NCBI GenBank assembly: GCA_964390355.1
Contig: CAYMHS010000001.1
Span: forward strand, 412,163-436,162
Direction of reading: 5' to 3'
Origin: an uncultured Thermoproteaceae archaeon
Lineage (GTDB): Archaea > Thermoproteota > Thermoprotei > Thermoproteales > Thermocladiaceae
DNA length: 24,000 nucleotides
Shown: one piece after another, positions 3,400 through 17,495 of the stretch
Layout: every line of letters starts with the position of its first letter
Position numbering within the stretch: the first letter of the stretch is position 1
Position numbers and translations under genes: made by a program
The notes under the pieces: model-generated
The model's database searches: none
What the model was told of the DNA's origin: nothing
What the model saw: only the letters and a program-made list of their open reading frames with translations

Positions 3400-4200
3400 T
3401 TGATGAGCATAATAACTTTACTTACAGATTTTGGTATACGAGACTATTTTGTAGCTTCTATGAAGGGTGTAATACTTAGTATCAACTCAAGTGTTAAGAT
3501 TGTAGATATTACTCACGAAGTACCTAAGTACAATATTGCTAAAGCTGCATTTATACTATACTCATGCTATAAGTACTTTCCTAAAAATACTATACATGTA
3601 GTAGTTGTTGATCCTGGTGTTGGAACTGAAAGAAGGCCTATCATCATTAAATCGAAAAACTACTACTTTGTAGGTCCTGATAATGGTGTACTTACACTTG
3701 CAGCTGAAGATGATGGTATTGAGAAGGTTTATGAAATAAGTGTAGGTAGATATACCAGATCAGAGATATCATCAACTTTTCATGGTAGAGATATCTTCGC
3801 ACCAATAGCTGCATATTTAAGTCTTGGTATTAATGTTGATGAACTTGGTAGAGAGATTAATAATTATGTTAAATTACCAATAGTCAGGCCGAGGATAATT
3901 AATAACATTGTAGAGTGTTGTATCGTTTATATAGATTCCTTCGGAAATGCATATACAAGTTTAAAGTATGATGATTTAAAGAAGCTAAATTTCAAACCAT
4001 ACAGAGAACTTGAGATTACTCTTAAAGATAATGTAGAGTTGAGAATACCTTTCGTAAAGGCTTACAATGATGTTTCCGAAAATTCTCCACTAGCTTTGAT
4101 TAATAGTGAAGGTTATCTAGAACTTGCAGTAAATAAAGGTAATTTTGCAGAAATGTTTAATGTTAAAGAATTTGATAAAGTGCTAATTAAGCTTAAATAG
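3400..4200 (+). CDS. S-adenosyl-L-methionine hydroxide adenosyltransferase (DUF62 / SAM hydrolase family)
   Basis: Family motifs are present: 'LLTDFGIRDYFVASMKGVI', 'VVVDPGVGTERRPI', 'VGPDNGVL', 'STFHGRDIFAPIAAYL'. The likely start is ATG 3403, one codon after TTG 3400. A TATA-like ATAAATAA sits at about 3374-3381. Confidence 0.85.
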   Translation: MMSIITLLTDFGIRDYFVASMKGVILSINSSVKIVDITHEVPKYNIAKAAFILYSCYKYFPKNTIHVVVVDPGVGTERRPIIIKSKNYYFVGPDNGVLTLAAEDDGIEKVYEISVGRYTRSEISSTFHGRDIFAPIAAYLSLGINVDELGREINNYVKLPIVRPRIINNIVECCIVYIDSFGNAYTSLKYDDLKKLNFKPYRELEITLKDNVELRIPFVKAYNDVSENSPLALINSEGYLELAVNKGNFAEMFNVKEFDKVLIKLK

Positions 4201-4727: not shown

Positions 4728-5978
4728 TCACTCTCCAAACTTCTCTTGTCTTCCTAAATAATTCGTTATTATTGGCATTAAGTCAAGCCCCTTAAGAACT
4801 CCCCAAAATCCTTCACTACAGGCCTTTTCACAGTATTTACTTACTTCGTCTCTAAATAAGTCAGGTCCCCACATCATTATTGGTACAGGATCACCTGTAT
4901 GGTCTTTAACTTTTACGGGTGTTGCATGATCACATGTGATTACTATGTACGTATTATCTGGTACTTTCTCAAGAACTCTTCTTAAAGCTGCATCTACTTG
5001 TTCAATAATCCTTATCTTACCCATAACATCTCCGTCATGACTTGCAGAGTCTGTTGGTTTAACATGAAGAACAACAATATCATAATTACTTAAAGCCTTA
5101 ACAGCTTCTTCAAAGGCCCTATTATAATCGTCCGTCTTTGCTCCTCGATAGCCTGGTACATCTATGACATCAAAGCCTAAAGCTTTGCCAATACCTTTAA
5201 TGACAGCAATTCCAGCAATCATAGAGCACCTAATGTTGTACACTTCATTTATTGGCTTAATTTTTGGTAAAATACCTGCACCTCTAAGAAGTATCATATT
5301 TATTAAGGGTTTTCCTTCTCTTCTTCTAGTAATGTTAATTTCAGATTGACTTAACTTTTCATACACAAGTTTTGTAAATTCTTGAAGTATTTTGCTTGTT
5401 CTTTTAGCTTCTTCAGAATCATCTAATGGTTTTCCATCAAGAACTCTCTTATTAATGGCGTGAGGATCAGTGTTACCTACTCTATATGATATTTTCTCAC
5501 CTCTAAGTATGAGTACACCTCTATGTTCTGTTGTGTGTTTATATATTAACTCCACGCCATACTTCTCATTTATTATCTTTCCAATATCCTCATTTATTAT
5601 CCTCTCAATCTCTCTAGCCTCTTCAGGATTTACATATCTACCTGCTCTTCTATCAATTACAATTAAGTCATTATTAACAGTTGCTACATTAGTTCTAAAA
5701 GCAATATCACCTGGTCTTAAATCTACACCAGCACCTAAAGCTTCAAAAGGTCCTCTACCTGTATAATATCTGTAAGGATCGTATCCAAAAAGCGCTAAAT
5801 GTGCAACATCACTTCCAGGCCTTACTCCAGGACTAATGGCATAGAGTAATCCACAAGATCCTTCACTGGTAAGTCTATCAATTGTTGGTTTTTGTGCGAC
5901 TTCAAGTGGGGTTTTTCTACCTAGCTCAAGTAATGGTCTATCAGCTGCGCCATCAAGTATAATGATTAATGCCTGCAT
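4728..5978 (-). CDS. apgM: 2,3-bisphosphoglycerate-independent phosphoglycerate mutase, archaeal type
   Basis: It is 416 aa with 'IIILDGAADRP', 'HVKPTDSASHDGD' and 'ITCDHATP', the metal/phosphoserine-site motifs of the archaeal iPGM (ApgM) family. Confidence 0.85.
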   Translation of the reverse strand: MQALIIILDGAADRPLLELGRKTPLEVAQKPTIDRLTSEGSCGLLYAISPGVRPGSDVAHLALFGYDPYRYYTGRGPFEALGAGVDLRPGDIAFRTNVATVNNDLIVIDRRAGRYVNPEEAREIERIINEDIGKIINEKYGVELIYKHTTEHRGVLILRGEKISYRVGNTDPHAINKRVLDGKPLDDSEEAKRTSKILQEFTKLVYEKLSQSEINITRRREGKPLINMILLRGAGILPKIKPINEVYNIRCSMIAGIAVIKGIGKALGFDVIDVPGYRGAKTDDYNRAFEEAVKALSNYDIVVLHVKPTDSASHDGDVMGKIRIIEQVDAALRRVLEKVPDNTYIVITCDHATPVKVKDHTGDPVPIMMWGPDLFRDEVSKYCEKACSEGFWGVLKGLDLMPIITNYLGRQEKFGE

Positions 5979-6132
5979 GATGAGAGAATTAGTACATAAT
6001 ATTTAAGTATTGTTTCCTCACTGACGTACTATAAACAACTTCCATTACCATTGCAAGAAGTATAGGTAAAATGTAACTATGCGGACTGTTCTTGGTGTGG
6101 TGGTAAGTTTATATCTTGAAGTATATTTGAAG

Positions 6133-7269
6133 TTATTTTGATAGTTTTAAAATACCTTTTCTAGCAATTAATATTGCTGATACTGTATGTTTATCTAGTC
6201 CAAATTTTCTCATAATTTCTTTATGTTCTTTACTTGATGATGTGCCTTTAGGACTTACGTAAGTTACTTGTAATGCATATAGTGGTGCTTTCCATGAAAT
6301 TCTCTCAATTATTGAATTTCTAAATATTGAAATTTTGTAATTATACTTTTCATGTTTTCTATCTTCTTTATTTCTAATCCAGAAGTATTTTAGATAACCA
6401 ATTATTTTAGGATTTTCAAGTACAATAGTTGAAACACCGTGATGATAAGCATATCTTAAACATTCATGTATTGCTTGACCAATAACACTCCAAGCAGTTT
6501 TTCTAGGAAATCCTCTAGAAGTAACTTCACTAAACCGAAAAGTCTTCTTATCAAGCAATTTCTCATCCTCATTAATTATTACAAGATTTATTCTATCAAC
6601 ATTAACGTCTATTCCTGCAATATTGTTTCCCAATGATTTATCAAATCTCTTCATAACTTGAACATAGAAATTATATGGAATCATTAATTGAACTTCACCA
6701 TAGAGATGAAAATTACAATCACAACCCATACCATAATCGTTAATGTAAATCCTGGCAGGATAACCAATTTCACCACTAAATGCTTTATTGATAAGTTCAT
6801 TAATTATTTTCTTATAGTATTTTGATACTTTAACATTAAGTTCTATTCCATAACTTCTCAAATGGTAATCATATACTAAGACTTCAACAGTATTCAAGTT
6901 TATGAAATGTACGTTTAAATTACCTTTCTTACTTTTCTCTTTGTCTGCCTTTGATTGAAATAATAACCAATTACTAAGTTCAACATCTTGAGTATTTACA
7001 CCTAAAGCAGGTATTGACTTAGGTGTTGAATGTATAAGTTTTCCAATACCTTCACAGTATCTACGATTTGGAAGAATTGAGTAACATTTTTCAACTGAAA
7101 GACTTAGAAAATCGTATTGAGAATATTTACATATCTTCTCATCCTGTTTAACAAGTTTTAATAATCTATGTGCACAAACCTTCGATAACTAAGCAGTTAA
7201 AAGAATAAGAAACGCACTTCTATCAACAACATGAAAAGGTAATCTAACAGTTATGTAGTCTAACTCCAT
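6133..7269 (-). pseudogene. TnpB / IS605-OrfB-like RuvC nuclease gene of 378 sense codons, interrupted by one in-frame TAG (7189-7191). It lacks a zinc ribbon.
   Basis: My own translation from ATG 7269 stays in frame with track ORF 6133-6897, whose 'M' is really a TTG Leu codon. There is a single stop at codon 27. RuvC-like motifs are 'IAGIDVNVDRINL' (D), 'STIVLENPK' (E), 'VTYVSPKGTSSS' and 'GLDKHTVSAILIARKG' (D). Only 11 aa lie where the CxxC...CxxC ribbon normally sits. A TATA at 7291-7302 is correctly spaced for a leaderless transcript. Confidence 0.7.
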
Positions 7270-7290
7270 TAGGACGATATGTACCGAAGG

Positions 7291-7302
7291 TTTTATATAA
7301 AA
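7291..7302. promoter_or_regulatory. Perfectly palindromic TATA element TTTTATATAAAA, a putative bidirectional promoter
   Basis: The sequence equals its own reverse complement. The core is centred about 26 nt from ATG 7269 on the minus strand and about 26 nt from the start of the GC-rich island (~7322-7325) on the plus strand. Confidence 0.55.
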
Positions 7303-7324
7303 ACTTTCTTTCTAAACTGAACTA

Positions 7325-7440
7325 GTGACCCGTTGGCGCGTGAGGGGGTTTGACCCCTCCAGTAGCCCACCAACGGGAAACCGCAATGAACCCGAGTGAG
7401 TTCTGCTAGTTTCTGAGGGTAGAAGTTACTCACTCGGAGA
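7325..7440 (+). ncRNA. Unclassified structured GC-rich RNA candidate with two hairpins; strand tentative
   Basis: It is the only strongly GC-rich block in an AT-rich window. Hairpin 1 has an 8-bp outer stem (7329-7336 / 7370-7377), an internal loop (CGCGU / CAGUAGCCCA) and a 6-bp inner stem (7342-7347 / 7354-7359) with loop GUUUGA. Hairpin 2 has a 10-bp perfect stem (7392-7401 / 7428-7437) and a 5-bp extension (7402-7406 / 7419-7423) containing a G7405-U7420 wobble that pairs only on the plus strand. A TATA is correctly spaced upstream on the plus strand. Confidence 0.5.
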
Positions 7441-7450
7441 GCACTAAGTA

Positions 7451-7786
7451 TTAGCTTTCCAAAACTTCGTCAATCCATTCAAGATAATTCCTTAAACCGT
7501 AAATGATAGGTATGGCTACGATTTCAGGTACTTCGTAGGGATGTACTTTCTTAACTTCATCTATAACCCTGTCGAGCATGTCAAGTCTTGATTTAATGAT
7601 GAGAAGATTTTCTTTAGCTTCCTCTATATCACCTTTCCACAGGAAAATACTTGAGACACTATTAATAATATTAACACATGCTGCAAGTCTTTCACTTACT
7701 AATGTTTTTGCAATTTTCTCTGCACTTTCTCTATCAGGTGTTGTTATTAGGATTATAATGTAAGTTCCTAAAGATGATGTTGTCAT
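7451..7786 (-). CDS. cutA: Divalent-cation tolerance protein CutA
   Basis: It is 111 aa with 'ITTPDRESAEKIAKTLVSERLAACVNI', 'FLWKGDIEEAKENLLIIKS' and 'HPYEVPEIVAIPI', the canonical CutA1 pattern. Confidence 0.85.
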   Translation of the reverse strand: MTTSSLGTYIIILITTPDRESAEKIAKTLVSERLAACVNIINSVSSIFLWKGDIEEAKENLLIIKSRLDMLDRVIDEVKKVHPYEVPEIVAIPIIYGLRNYLEWIDEVLES

Positions 7787-16055: not shown

Positions 16056-17495
16056 TTAAATTTTTAACTTTCTTAAATTTAAACTATATGCATTAATGCC
16101 TAATCTTCTCAATTTTCTTACTAAATACTTGCTAAGTAATGTTCCTGAACAATAGAGAATATATGTCTTATCCTTTCCATACTTATCGATGATCTTCTCA
16201 ATATCTTCAGGCTTAATGTTTATAGCTCCAGGTATATGCCAAGATCTATACTTATCTTCACTTCTTAAATCGATAATTATAGCGTTACTTGGTAGATAGT
16301 CAATTTCTAAATCTTTATCTTCACCTCTTAACAGATCTTCAAGTTCACTAACTTTATAAATCCTAACATTACTAACAATCCCATCTATCAACTTCTTATC
16401 AATTTTCTCAAACTCTCTCTCTACTTCTTCAGGCTTAGCTCTAGTCTTTGGTTTACTTGAAAAAATTGCACAATACTCCTCAACCTCTATAGAGTAGTTG
16501 TATGTTCCTATTTTTTGTGCTATTTTCATAATTTCATCCTTATCAAGACCTGCAAGTGGTCTAATTATGGGTATCGATATTCCATACTCGGTAGCGTATA
16601 TATTATGAAGAGTTTGTGAAGATACTTGACCAATAACCTCACCTGTAATTAATGCTTTAGCTTTAATTTTCTTAGCAATTTCTTCACCAATAAGGTACAA
16701 TACTCTCTTGAAAATTAAATTCCATAAGTGTGGATTAACTTTCAATCTTATCTCGTTTATAAGTTCTTCACCGTTAATTACGTATACCTTAGCATCATAA
16801 CCTAAAGACCAACTGCTAAATAATGTATATATAACTCGAAGTACAGGTATTAGTTCGAGTTCACCTGCCAAATTACAGAAAAGTGCATCTACAAGTACTC
16901 CTCTCCTCATAACAAGCCATGCAGCTACTGGCGAATCTATACCACCAGAGATTAAGGCAAGTGCTTTTCCTTGAGAACCGAGTGGTAATCCTCCGGGTCC
17001 TTCAATAACTTCATCGTAAAAGTATGCTTTATGGTTTCTAATCTCAATATGTAGGGTTATATCTGGTTTTTCAAGATTAACACCTCTAGAGTACCTAAGT
17101 AACGCTGAGCCTATACTTCTCTCAACATCTATAGATGTGAAGTTGTGAATACCAACTCTTCTAGCTCTAACGGCAAAGGTCTTATTGACAATTTTATTAC
17201 CCCATAACTTCTCGGCATATTGTGTAAGTTCTTGAAGTTCTTTGAAGGTAGTTTCGAAACATGGGGATATGGATTTAACACCAAAAATTCGTGGAAGAAT
17301 CTTAACCACCTTATCATAGTCATGATCATCAACTTTAACGATAAATCTTCCAGGGATTTTCTCGATTATGAAATTAGTTATATCATGTTGAAGTAGTGCA
17401 TGTTCTATATTTTTTGCAAGTAAATTCTCGAATCTAATCCTTACCTTCCTGCTCTTGATGGCTATCTCACTGTATCTAATAATTATGCTTCTCAT
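16056..17495 (-). CDS. thiI: tRNA sulfurtransferase ThiI (THUMP + PP-loop ATPase + C-terminal rhodanese domain)
   Basis: It has 'ALISGGIDSPVAAWLVMRRG' (SGGxDS PP-loop), an N-terminal ferredoxin-like/THUMP region, and a C-terminal rhodanese-like 'WHIPGAINI...YILYCSGTLLS' with a candidate active-site Cys. Confidence 0.85.
   Translation of the reverse strand: MRSIIIRYSEIAIKSRKVRIRFENLLAKNIEHALLQHDITNFIIEKIPGRFIVKVDDHDYDKVVKILPRIFGVKSISPCFETTFKELQELTQYAEKLWGNKIVNKTFAVRARRVGIHNFTSIDVERSIGSALLRYSRGVNLEKPDITLHIEIRNHKAYFYDEVIEGPGGLPLGSQGKALALISGGIDSPVAAWLVMRRGVLVDALFCNLAGELELIPVLRVIYTLFSSWSLGYDAKVYVINGEELINEIRLKVNPHLWNLIFKRVLYLIGEEIAKKIKAKALITGEVIGQVSSQTLHNIYATEYGISIPIIRPLAGLDKDEIMKIAQKIGTYNYSIEVEEYCAIFSSKPKTRAKPEEVEREFEKIDKKLIDGIVSNVRIYKVSELEDLLRGEDKDLEIDYLPSNAIIIDLRSEDKYRSWHIPGAINIKPEDIEKIIDKYGKDKTYILYCSGTLLSKYLVRKLRRLGINAYSLNLRKLKI

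Follow-up and report, generated by a model that had tools for sequence, protein, structure and literature searches.

Genes and features at the locus

The 24,000-nucleotide stretch analysed here (the window) comes from an uncultured Thermoproteaceae archaeon (contig CAYMHS010000001.1). In it, a GC-rich island lies between cutA (Pfam CutA1; 7451-7786, minus strand, read from 7786 to 7451) and apgM (4728-5978, minus strand, read from 5978 to 4728). Along the minus strand the order is cutA, the island, the frame of a TnpB/Cas12-like nuclease gene of the SSO2105 family (6133-7269) and apgM. A first-pass annotation of the window had described the island as an isolated, unclassified structured RNA. 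We found that it is not isolated: it is one end, the terminal module, of a multi-copy mobile element that carries the TnpB-like gene (~6081-7445, ~1,365 bp, as set by the limits of copy-to-copy similarity).

As had been claimed, the island stands out by its composition: its G+C at 7301-7440 is 0.54-0.56, whereas the window averages 0.329 (32.9%). The segment 7323-7445 is the only non-coding GC-rich island in the window. The sole other 100-nucleotide (nt) bin with a GC of at least 0.50, and the second most GC-rich, is 16901-17000 (0.50); it is coding, inside a 479-amino-acid (aa) open reading frame (ORF; 16056-17495, minus strand), and not an RNA island. A mechanically called 46-aa ORF on the minus strand (7293-7433) does overlap the island, which had been said to encode none, but this is a chance ORF across a GC-rich palindrome and of no consequence. 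ARAGORN found no tRNA or tmRNA in the window.

Folded as RNA on the plus strand, the island forms two hairpins. Hairpin 1 (7329-7377) proved to be just as the annotation had drawn it, with an outer stem CCCGUUGG (7329-7336)/CCAACGGG (7370-7377), internal loops of 5 nt (CGCGU) and 10 nt (CAGUAGCCCA), and an inner stem GAGGGG (7342-7347)/CCCCUC (7354-7359) capped by GUUUGA. For hairpin 2 (7392-7437), the 10-bp basal stem CCGAGUGAGU (7392-7401)/ACUCACUCGG (7428-7437) and the 4-nt bulge (AGUU) were borne out, whereas the distal extension (7402-7407/7418-7423) has 6 bp, two G-U pairs and a 10-nt loop in the minimum-free-energy fold, rather than 5 bp, one G-U pair and a 12-nt loop. The fold energy of -51.7 kcal/mol compares with -37.7 +/- 4.1 kcal/mol in dinucleotide shuffles (z = -3.5), none of 200 shuffles being as good. 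The minus strand of the island folds equally well, so that folding energy alone cannot choose the strand in the window copy.

A conserved and covarying RNA module

Comparison of the island itself with homologous loci by blastn and nhmmer gave weak matches only, and homologs had therefore to be located through the neighbouring gene, a route that did succeed: a genome-collection scan returned 79 loci. Three partial loci only were found in a metagenome scan with the window protein, and there was no match by tblastn in plasmid and phage collections. The 220 nt upstream of each gene share a near-universal layout, which reads, on the gene strand, ACCGTTCNCC, a hairpin, GGTTCATCACGGT, a long helix with an inner hairpin, GGTCACCA, a TATA-like sequence, a short palindrome and the ATG.

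The covariance model R1, for which 12 subfamily sequences including the window were aligned, gave 81 matches in 90 sources. Its single match in the window (75.5 bits, E = 3.7e-20) spans the whole conserved module, 7323-7445 on the plus strand, and aligns with 61 modules located by hand. The match was antisense to the gene and 33-105 nt (median 52) upstream of it in 66 of the 75 loci that retain the 5' end of the gene; in the window, the island lies 53 nt upstream of the nuclease ATG, on the opposite strand. Most of the nine exceptions were contig truncations, a subtype missed by R1 in which the module is still visible by eye (L040, L043 and L046), or the composite loci L010 and L027.

From 5' to 3', the module is made up of UAGUGA, a P3/P4 domain, a junction, P1, a kink-turn (K-turn) and P2. 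P3 is the helix of hairpin 1, which encloses the two internal loops and the P4 hairpin (7342-7359). The 5' strand of P1 (ACCGC, 7380-7384) pairs with the final five nt of the module, and P2, recognised both by its fold and by covariation, is hairpin 2, whose length varies among relatives.

The closest RNA relatives of the window module, L086 and L085, adjoin the proteins most similar to that of the window, and they retain every helix by compensatory changes. P3 is CCCGUUGG/CCAACGGG in the window, CCCGUCGG/CCGACGGG in L086 and CUCCCGAG/CUCGGGAG in L085; P4 is GAGGGG/CCCCUC, GGCGG/CCGCC and GGGAGGGGG/CCCCCUCCC, respectively; and P2 is GAGUGAGU/ACUCACUC, CGAGUAGG/CCUACUCG and CGAGGCGG/CCGCCUCG. 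The long-range helix P1, between the linker and the last five bases of the module, also covaries among relatives (ACCGU/ACGGU, ACCGC/GCGGU, AGCGU/ACGCU).

Across the 12-sequence subfamily alignment, a 30-pair structure was 89.9% paired, with double changes at 20 of the 30 pairs, a result matched by none of 500 shuffles. In a larger alignment of 81 rows (A5), which were fitted to R1 and are hence tilted toward the modelled structure, 95.1% of cells were paired, 29 of the 30 pairs showed compensatory change, and double changes filled 511 cells, whereas shuffles gave 134 +/- 10, with none of 500 reaching 511. Sliding the 3' partner by one to three columns as a control lowered pairing to 35-50%. 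Compensatory changes occur at all eight P3 pairs, and the paired share of cells is 96.8% in P3 and likewise in P4, where wobble pairs comprise 30 G-U and one A-C. A hand comparison and an alignment made with MAFFT only (A4) agree with A5. RNAalifold, when applied to a 62-sequence MAFFT alignment, recovered P1 only because the variable hairpins were mis-registered, a problem that was solved by the subfamily seed and the covariance model. The substitutions in relatives thus preserve the stems, and with the fold statistics they uphold the claim that the island is a structured RNA.

A K-turn formed around hairpin 2

A K-turn consists of a C-stem, a 3-nt bulge, tandem sheared G-A/A-G pairs and then a non-canonical stem. 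Although the annotation had reported neither a K-turn nor a kink-loop (K-loop), a K-turn conserved in the family is formed by the linker and the 3' tail around hairpin 2, with P1 as its 5-bp C-stem. In the window, the two parts are ACCGC-AAU-GA-A (7380-7390) and A-GA-GCACU (7438-7445). The bulged strand (7385-7391) comprises the AAU bulge, G7388 and A7389, followed by A and C, while the non-bulged strand A-GA and the 3' strand of P1 (GCACU) together occupy 7438-7445, at the element terminus. The G and A of the bulged strand are invariant in all 68 non-redundant modules, with a bulge consensus of R-A-U; the non-bulged strand has A in 67 of 67, preceded by G in 52 and by A in 15. The window copy keeps the GA/GA pairs, as well as the two pairs of the C-stem that are closest to the bulge, and its two outer P1 pairs are mismatched.

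In half of the modules (34/68; for example L076 1579-1713 and L016 197-321), the distal P2 loop starts with (N)GA and ends with GA(N), a second K-turn or K-loop that is absent from the window copy. Modules with both motifs read in a box C/D-like order, GUGAUGA, ~12 nt, CNGA, loop, AUGANG, ~12 nt, NGA, and their two spacers pair with each other. A Caldivirga/Ignisphaera subtype (L037, L040, L043, L046, L048, L051 and L068) has a symmetric internal loop in place of the K-turn with a 3-nt bulge, UGAGA(A/G) opposite (C/U)GAGA(A/G), with four potential tandem G-A pairs and no bulge.

Strand and promoter

Five independent lines of evidence agree that the RNA strand is the one antisense to the gene, that is, the plus strand of the window, as the annotation had proposed. 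First, wobble pairs in the interior of P3/P4 were counted over the union of minimum-free-energy pairs from both strands, so that the strands were treated symmetrically; 115 pairs were G-U on the antisense-to-gene strand, compared with 4 when the sense strand was read (binomial P = 2.5e-29). Second, of 62 modules, 56 have their lower folding energy on the antisense-to-gene strand, with a mean difference of 8.5 kcal/mol, which we take as supporting evidence only because G-richness contributes to it. Third, the GA/GA K-turn can be read on the antisense-to-gene strand only, its complement reading UC/UC. The remaining two lines are the position of the TATA box and the orientation of the match to Rfam family Sso133 described below.

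The TATA box, TTTTATATAAAA, is a perfect palindrome at 7291-7302 (both strands). Measured from its centre at 7296.5, base 7323 on the plus strand is 26.5 nt away and, on the minus strand, the A of the nuclease ATG (7269) is 27.5 nt away; in both directions this is the usual archaeal distance from TATA box to start. In 62 loci, an AT-rich peak is found 20-28 nt beyond the module. A scan for bacterial-type promoters and terminators was uninformative for an archaeon. Most loci also have a short GC-clamped palindrome (GGGTATATCCC, GGGGATTCCCC or GGATATATATCC) ~5-16 nt upstream of the ATG; from its place between TATA box and start codon, it could be a candidate operator-like site.

Relation to Sso133

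At gathering thresholds, Rfam gave nothing in the whole window or in 12 homolog loci. In permissive Rfam searches, the only ones in which the similarity surfaced, L085 198-263 matched RF02814 Sso133 (Sulfolobus sRNA133) at 46.8 bits (gathering score 44, E = 1.3e-6), L062, L047 and L064 scored 26-31 bits, and window positions 7315-7379 (plus strand) aligned in the same register at 11.9 bits (E = 4.2), below threshold. The window module, below the cut-off and linked to Sso133 by intermediates, is thus a divergent homolog and not a scoring member. Although the window has no match at threshold, the description of the island as belonging to no known family therefore has to give way, since the P3/P4 half of its relative L085 matches Sso133 above the gathering score. 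The Sso133 model is 73 nt long, covering the 5' tail and P3/P4 only and ending before P1, the K-turn and P2; in L085, the match is on the antisense-to-gene strand. Rfam lists Sso133 as a small RNA (sRNA) gene with no function stated, and we found no paper linking it to a TnpB-like gene in a literature whose coverage was incomplete. That the island is not a tRNA, 5S rRNA, signal recognition particle (SRP) RNA, RNase P RNA or H/ACA RNA is supported.

The adjoining TnpB/Cas12-like gene

The gene beside the module (6133-7269, minus strand), identified by its homologs and by the predicted fold of the closest intact homolog (P0002), has 378 codons and is a pseudogene in the window. Its frame is open from 6897 (a 254-aa ORF) back to the ATG at 7269-7267 except for one in-frame TAG at 7191-7189, which is present in independent assemblies. 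This TAG aligns with a near-invariant Trp of the homologs and is therefore a TGG-to-TAG nonsense mutation; as a result, gene callers report only the 254-aa ORF without a Pfam match, and the identity of the gene is hidden. More than 200 full-length proteins (370-381 aa) are homologous to the reconstructed 378-aa sequence, at 40-57% identity; they belong to Desulfurococcales, Ignisphaera, Vulcanisaeta, Caldivirga, Staphylothermus, Pyrodictiaceae, Thermococcus/Pyrococcus and Archaeoglobaceae, and a second protein search returned 844 clusters at E <= 1e-10.

The family carries the precomputed Pfam label PF27229 SSO2105_N. The protein itself had no Pfam-A match in the local library, and its profile had none in a sequence search of the PDB. 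No Sulfolobus-named homolog was found among the best 120 matches, where one had been sought as a way to the S. solfataricus SSO2105 locus, and nothing relevant was found in the literature on SSO2105, PF27229, Sso133 or ISC1316.

An AlphaFold model of P0002 (predicted local distance difference test score, pLDDT, 90.2; predicted template modelling score, pTM, 0.82) was most similar to Cas12f1 (7c7l; E = 1.3e-10, template modelling score 0.54), AsCas12f, Cas12k and ISFba1 TnpB (8iaz; E = 4.8e-5), so that, as modelled, the product of the SSO2105-family gene has a Cas12f/Cas12k/TnpB-like fold. Of the RuvC residues, D (in GxDVN) and E (in LEN) are invariant and the third, D (in GLDRH), is ~90% conserved.

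The mobile element and its insertion site

In all-against-all blastn comparisons, similarity between copies begins at the ACCGTT end, within 1 nt of the last P1 base, and stops 30-55 nt past the stop codon of the gene, giving units of ~1.3 kb. In several genomes there is more than one copy, and the flanks of these copies are unrelated; Caldivirga sp. MU80, for instance, has four. The gene-distal end of the window element (6081-6132, minus strand), recognised from the ends of its relatives, finishes in ...CCAAGAACAGUCCGC, and relatives end in ...(GAAACAG or GUUUCUG)CCC(C). Several subtypes have a short hairpin at this other element end, while P2 stands at the module end. Flanks at the CCC(C) end often begin with TA or AT, a hint that the target is AT-rich, and the conserved CCC may belong to the target as well.

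In V. distributa (L094 2624-4245, CP002100), the spacer between the neighbouring genes cutA and apgM is 47 nt long and R1 has no match there, compared with a gap of 1,472 nt in the window, from which it follows that the window element is an insertion between the two genes. The nearest relatives of ApgM, from Vulcanisaeta, are just 62-63% identical, and the empty site could for this reason be obtained only as synteny, not at the nucleotide level. By the same token, the DNA stems from a Vulcanisaeta-related, AT-rich lineage (33% GC) without close relatives among the protein matches. No transposase gene or domain was found among the called neighbours of the seven further homolog loci that have gene calls, although one acting in trans is conceivable. 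Within the window element, the module is the sole GC-rich or structured segment, and the 3' end of the gene is only 24-31% GC, making a canonical 3' omegaRNA unlikely here.

The window copy is, by its sequence, a decayed relic. Besides the nonsense codon in its gene, the 3' strand of P1 is GCACU, compared with GCGGU in L085 and L086 (two mismatches), and the K-turn has lost one nt next to it; the palindrome upstream of the start codon (7273-7286) is degraded (GGTACATATCGTCC, compared with GGGATATATATCCC in L086); and the R1 score of 75.5 bits compares with 97-138 bits for the nearest relatives. The insertion between cutA and apgM is probably inert.

Proposed mechanism and alternative explanations

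The best explanation of these data, and one that we lean towards, is that the module is an omegaRNA-like guide scaffold of a TnpB-like element with a divergent layout and a 3' guide derived from the flank. In such a system, one central TATA box would drive two divergent transcription units within an element of ~1.3-1.4 kb. The first would be a leaderless mRNA encoding the SSO2105-family RuvC protein, which has a TnpB/Cas12 fold and no zinc finger; the second, on the opposite strand, would be a structured RNA of ~125-165 nt starting near 7323. This RNA would fold as the P3/P4 domain followed by the K-turn, closed by P1 and extended by P2, and would end at the element boundary. Transcription would run on into the flank, and as the 3' end of the RNA coincides with the boundary, read-through would append neighbouring sequence as a 3' guide. 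In the window, the presumed guide would be 7446-7465 (plus strand), a flank antisense to the 3' end of cutA, with a length assumed by analogy with TnpB. We infer that the scaffold would bind the TnpB-like protein to give a DNA-cleaving, RNA-guided nuclease like the TnpB-omegaRNA complex, probably with L7Ae bound at the K-turn, by precedent of the OrfB-related RNAs of P. abyssi.

Several observations weigh against this explanation. The layout of the module is opposite to that of every characterised TnpB omegaRNA (PMC10691335, PMC8612924). The protein reached the cut-off of no curated TnpB profile (Pfam OrfB_IS605 and Cas12f1-like_TNB, NCBIfam guided_TnpB, TIGR01766): it scored 23-24 bits with TIGR01766 (cut-off 32; E = 7.7e-5), 15.9 bits with guided_TnpB (cut-off 100) and 18.9 bits with PF07282 (cut-off 26.3). 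All members lack the C4 zinc finger between RuvC-II and RuvC-III. No conserved motif like a target-adjacent motif (TAM) was readable next to either element end, and a scan of bacterial type, uninformative for an archaeon, found no terminator after the presumed guide. The P1/P2 domain shows no wobble asymmetry (40 versus 35 and, in a second count, 30 versus 25), and this domain may instead, or additionally, act or fold as DNA at the transposon end. Finally, with its gene a pseudogene, the window RNA is probably without a partner encoded in cis.

Among the alternatives, we consider it unlikely, though worth serious thought, that the RNA is a stand-alone regulatory sRNA of the Sso133 type, controlling transposon expression, copy number or neighbouring genes, and not a guide. 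Sso133 is listed in Rfam as an sRNA of no stated function; the RNA and the nuclease gene have their promoter region in common; and in the window, outward read-through would enter the 3' end of cutA in antisense. Yet the RNA does not overlap the nuclease gene and so cannot act on it as a cis-antisense RNA, while a regulator acting in trans would not need to have its 3' end at the element boundary, where it lies in every subtype. In addition, the structural complexity and covariation of the module are at the level of a scaffold, and its partner protein has the fold of an RNA-guided nuclease.

It is less probable still that the hairpins function mainly as DNA, as a subterminal single-stranded structure of the IS200/IS605 kind recognised by a transposase supplied in trans, with the transcript incidental. 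The position of the module at the extreme end of the element, the acceptance in P1/P2 of A-C as often as G-U pairs, and the short hairpin at the other end in several subtypes would all fit such a role. Against it, the wobble asymmetry of P3/P4 (115 to 4) and the invariant sheared GA/GA motif are specific to RNA and to one strand, a promoter lies at the correct distance, and no transposase gene adjoins any copy with gene calls. Known TnpA-binding hairpins are, moreover, much smaller than this four-helix module of 125-165 nt.

A role as an RNA-modification guide, H/ACA-like or box C/D-like, seems very improbable. The K-turn with, in many relatives, a distal K-loop does suggest one: in most relatives, the basal motif has the form GUGAUGA ... 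NGA and is accompanied by a terminal stem, and 34 of the 68 modules give the order C-D'-C'-D with spacers of ~12 nt. However, the would-be guide spacers form P2 with each other and covary for pairing, the distal motif is absent from the window, and no Rfam C/D model is matched. As for an H/ACA sRNA, the resemblance noted in the annotation dissolved on comparison, the AAA after hairpin 1 being a variable junction (GAAA, GAGA or GUCG) before P1 in relatives. This AAA and the upper stem are 18 nt apart, hairpin 1 lacks both an ANA box at a conserved distance and an upper-stem K-turn (its P4 loop is without a GA/GA motif), and no Rfam H/ACA model matches.

The annotation's alternative of a structured 3' extension of cutA on the minus strand, as an untranslated region or terminator, is effectively refuted, even though the island begins 5 nt past the cutA stop and its minus strand folds equally well, because at over 60 loci, in dozens of contexts, the module is accompanied by unrelated genes, the cutA-apgM region of V. 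distributa lacks it, the wobble asymmetry and K-turn point to the other strand, and there is no T-tract terminator.

Returning to the guide-scaffold explanation, we tentatively extend it to the whole family, a proposal about which we are rather evenly divided. The SSO2105 family (at least 844 protein clusters), as a highly divergent TnpB-like nuclease without a zinc finger, would on this proposal represent a large, uncharacterised system of the OMEGA (obligate mobile element-guided activity) type in hyperthermophilic archaea of the Thermoproteota, Thermococci and Archaeoglobi. Its guide RNA would lie 5' of the gene, diverging from a shared TATA box, with one or two K-turns arranged as in box C/D RNAs, a likely dependence on L7Ae and a 3' guide from the flank, and Sso133 would be the fragment of it that was seen first.

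Comparison with known systems

The nearest parallel is the TnpB omegaRNA, or right-end RNA (reRNA), of IS200/IS605 and IS607 elements, in which a structured non-coding RNA (ncRNA) likewise accompanies a RuvC protein of TnpB/Cas12 fold in a small transposon (PMC8612924, PMC10691335). In both cases, the scaffold ends exactly at the transposon boundary, from whose flank a 3' guide, presumed in ours, would be copied; both are multi-copy elements in which no terminal inverted repeats or target duplications are evident. Canonical omegaRNAs are located at, and overlap, the 3' end of tnpB (PMC8612924, PMC10691335, PMC4615843) and run in the same direction, whereas the module described here is on the 5' side and the opposite strand, with no overlap with the ORF. 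The protein here also differs in being without the zinc-finger/TNB module and below all TnpB profile thresholds, and known omegaRNA covariance models gave no match to the module. The IscB and IsrB omegaRNAs resemble it in lying upstream of a nuclease gene at a transposon end. IscB omegaRNA, however, is on the same strand as its gene and has a 5' guide, while our module is divergent, with the boundary at the RNA 3' end, and the protein fold is TnpB/Cas12-like, not IscB-like.

Sso133 is alike in strand, in its place in the 5' region and in its P3/P4 architecture, although its Rfam entry gives neither a function nor a link to a TnpB-like gene. The P. abyssi RNAs sRkB, sRkC and sRk52 and the L7Ae-bound, transposase-linked sRNAs of S. 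solfataricus are also GC-rich archaeal ncRNAs related to orphan OrfB (TnpB) genes, and sRkB and sRkC carry K-turns that bind L7Ae (PMC3124441). Those RNAs match the sense strand at the 3' end of OrfB, the canonical omegaRNA position (PMC3124441), and we found no sequence similarity between them and the module.

Archaeal box C/D sRNAs share with the module a K-turn closed by a terminal stem, a GUGAUGA-like box and, in many relatives, a distal K-loop with ~12 nt between the motifs. The differences are that the spacers here are complementary to each other (P2), that the D-like boxes are NGA and not CUGA, and that there is a large additional P3/P4 domain. The window copy has the basal K-turn only, with GCAAUGA as its C-like box and AGA as its D-like box. 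We rejected a box C/D sRNA as a candidate identity for the module.

If the guide-scaffold explanation is right, these elements would add a distinct architecture to the transposon-encoded RNA-guided nucleases, with a guide RNA that is upstream, divergent and separate from the ORF; they would give a function to the orphan Rfam family Sso133, and, by way of their K-turns, would connect L7Ae, an RNA-binding protein of the host, with a TnpB-like ribonucleoprotein at high temperature. Their proteins would be candidates for compact (~375 aa), thermostable, zinc-finger-less genome editors. For annotation, the present findings mean that GC-rich islands beside 'hypothetical' SSO2105_N genes in AT-rich archaea are transposon RNA modules and not host RNA genes.

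Composite and tandem arrangements

At L010 (2340-2486, plus strand) and L027 (2348-2480, plus strand), a second RNA module of a different subtype is found inverted between the TATA box and the nuclease ATG, the normal module lying further upstream (L010 2191-2302, L027 2200-2311). The 3' end of the second module (..GAACGGT) abuts ATATCCCTATG, so that the beginning of this same nuclease gene would serve as its presumed guide. At L086/L087 (153-1286, minus strand), a canonical TnpB gene (Pfam Cas12f1-like_TNB, 377 aa) is divergent, with its ATG 36 nt from the RNA end of an SSO2105-type element, and an outward RNA would thus read into another insertion sequence. In L014 (~3595-3640), two elements stand tail to tail, their CCC(C) ends separated by TAT only. 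At L065, two different TnpB-like ORFs lie in tandem on the plus strand, 11 nt apart (34-1029 and 1041-2012); the first encodes 331 aa with a FEDLD RuvC-II motif, and the second is an N-terminally truncated SSO2105-family gene.

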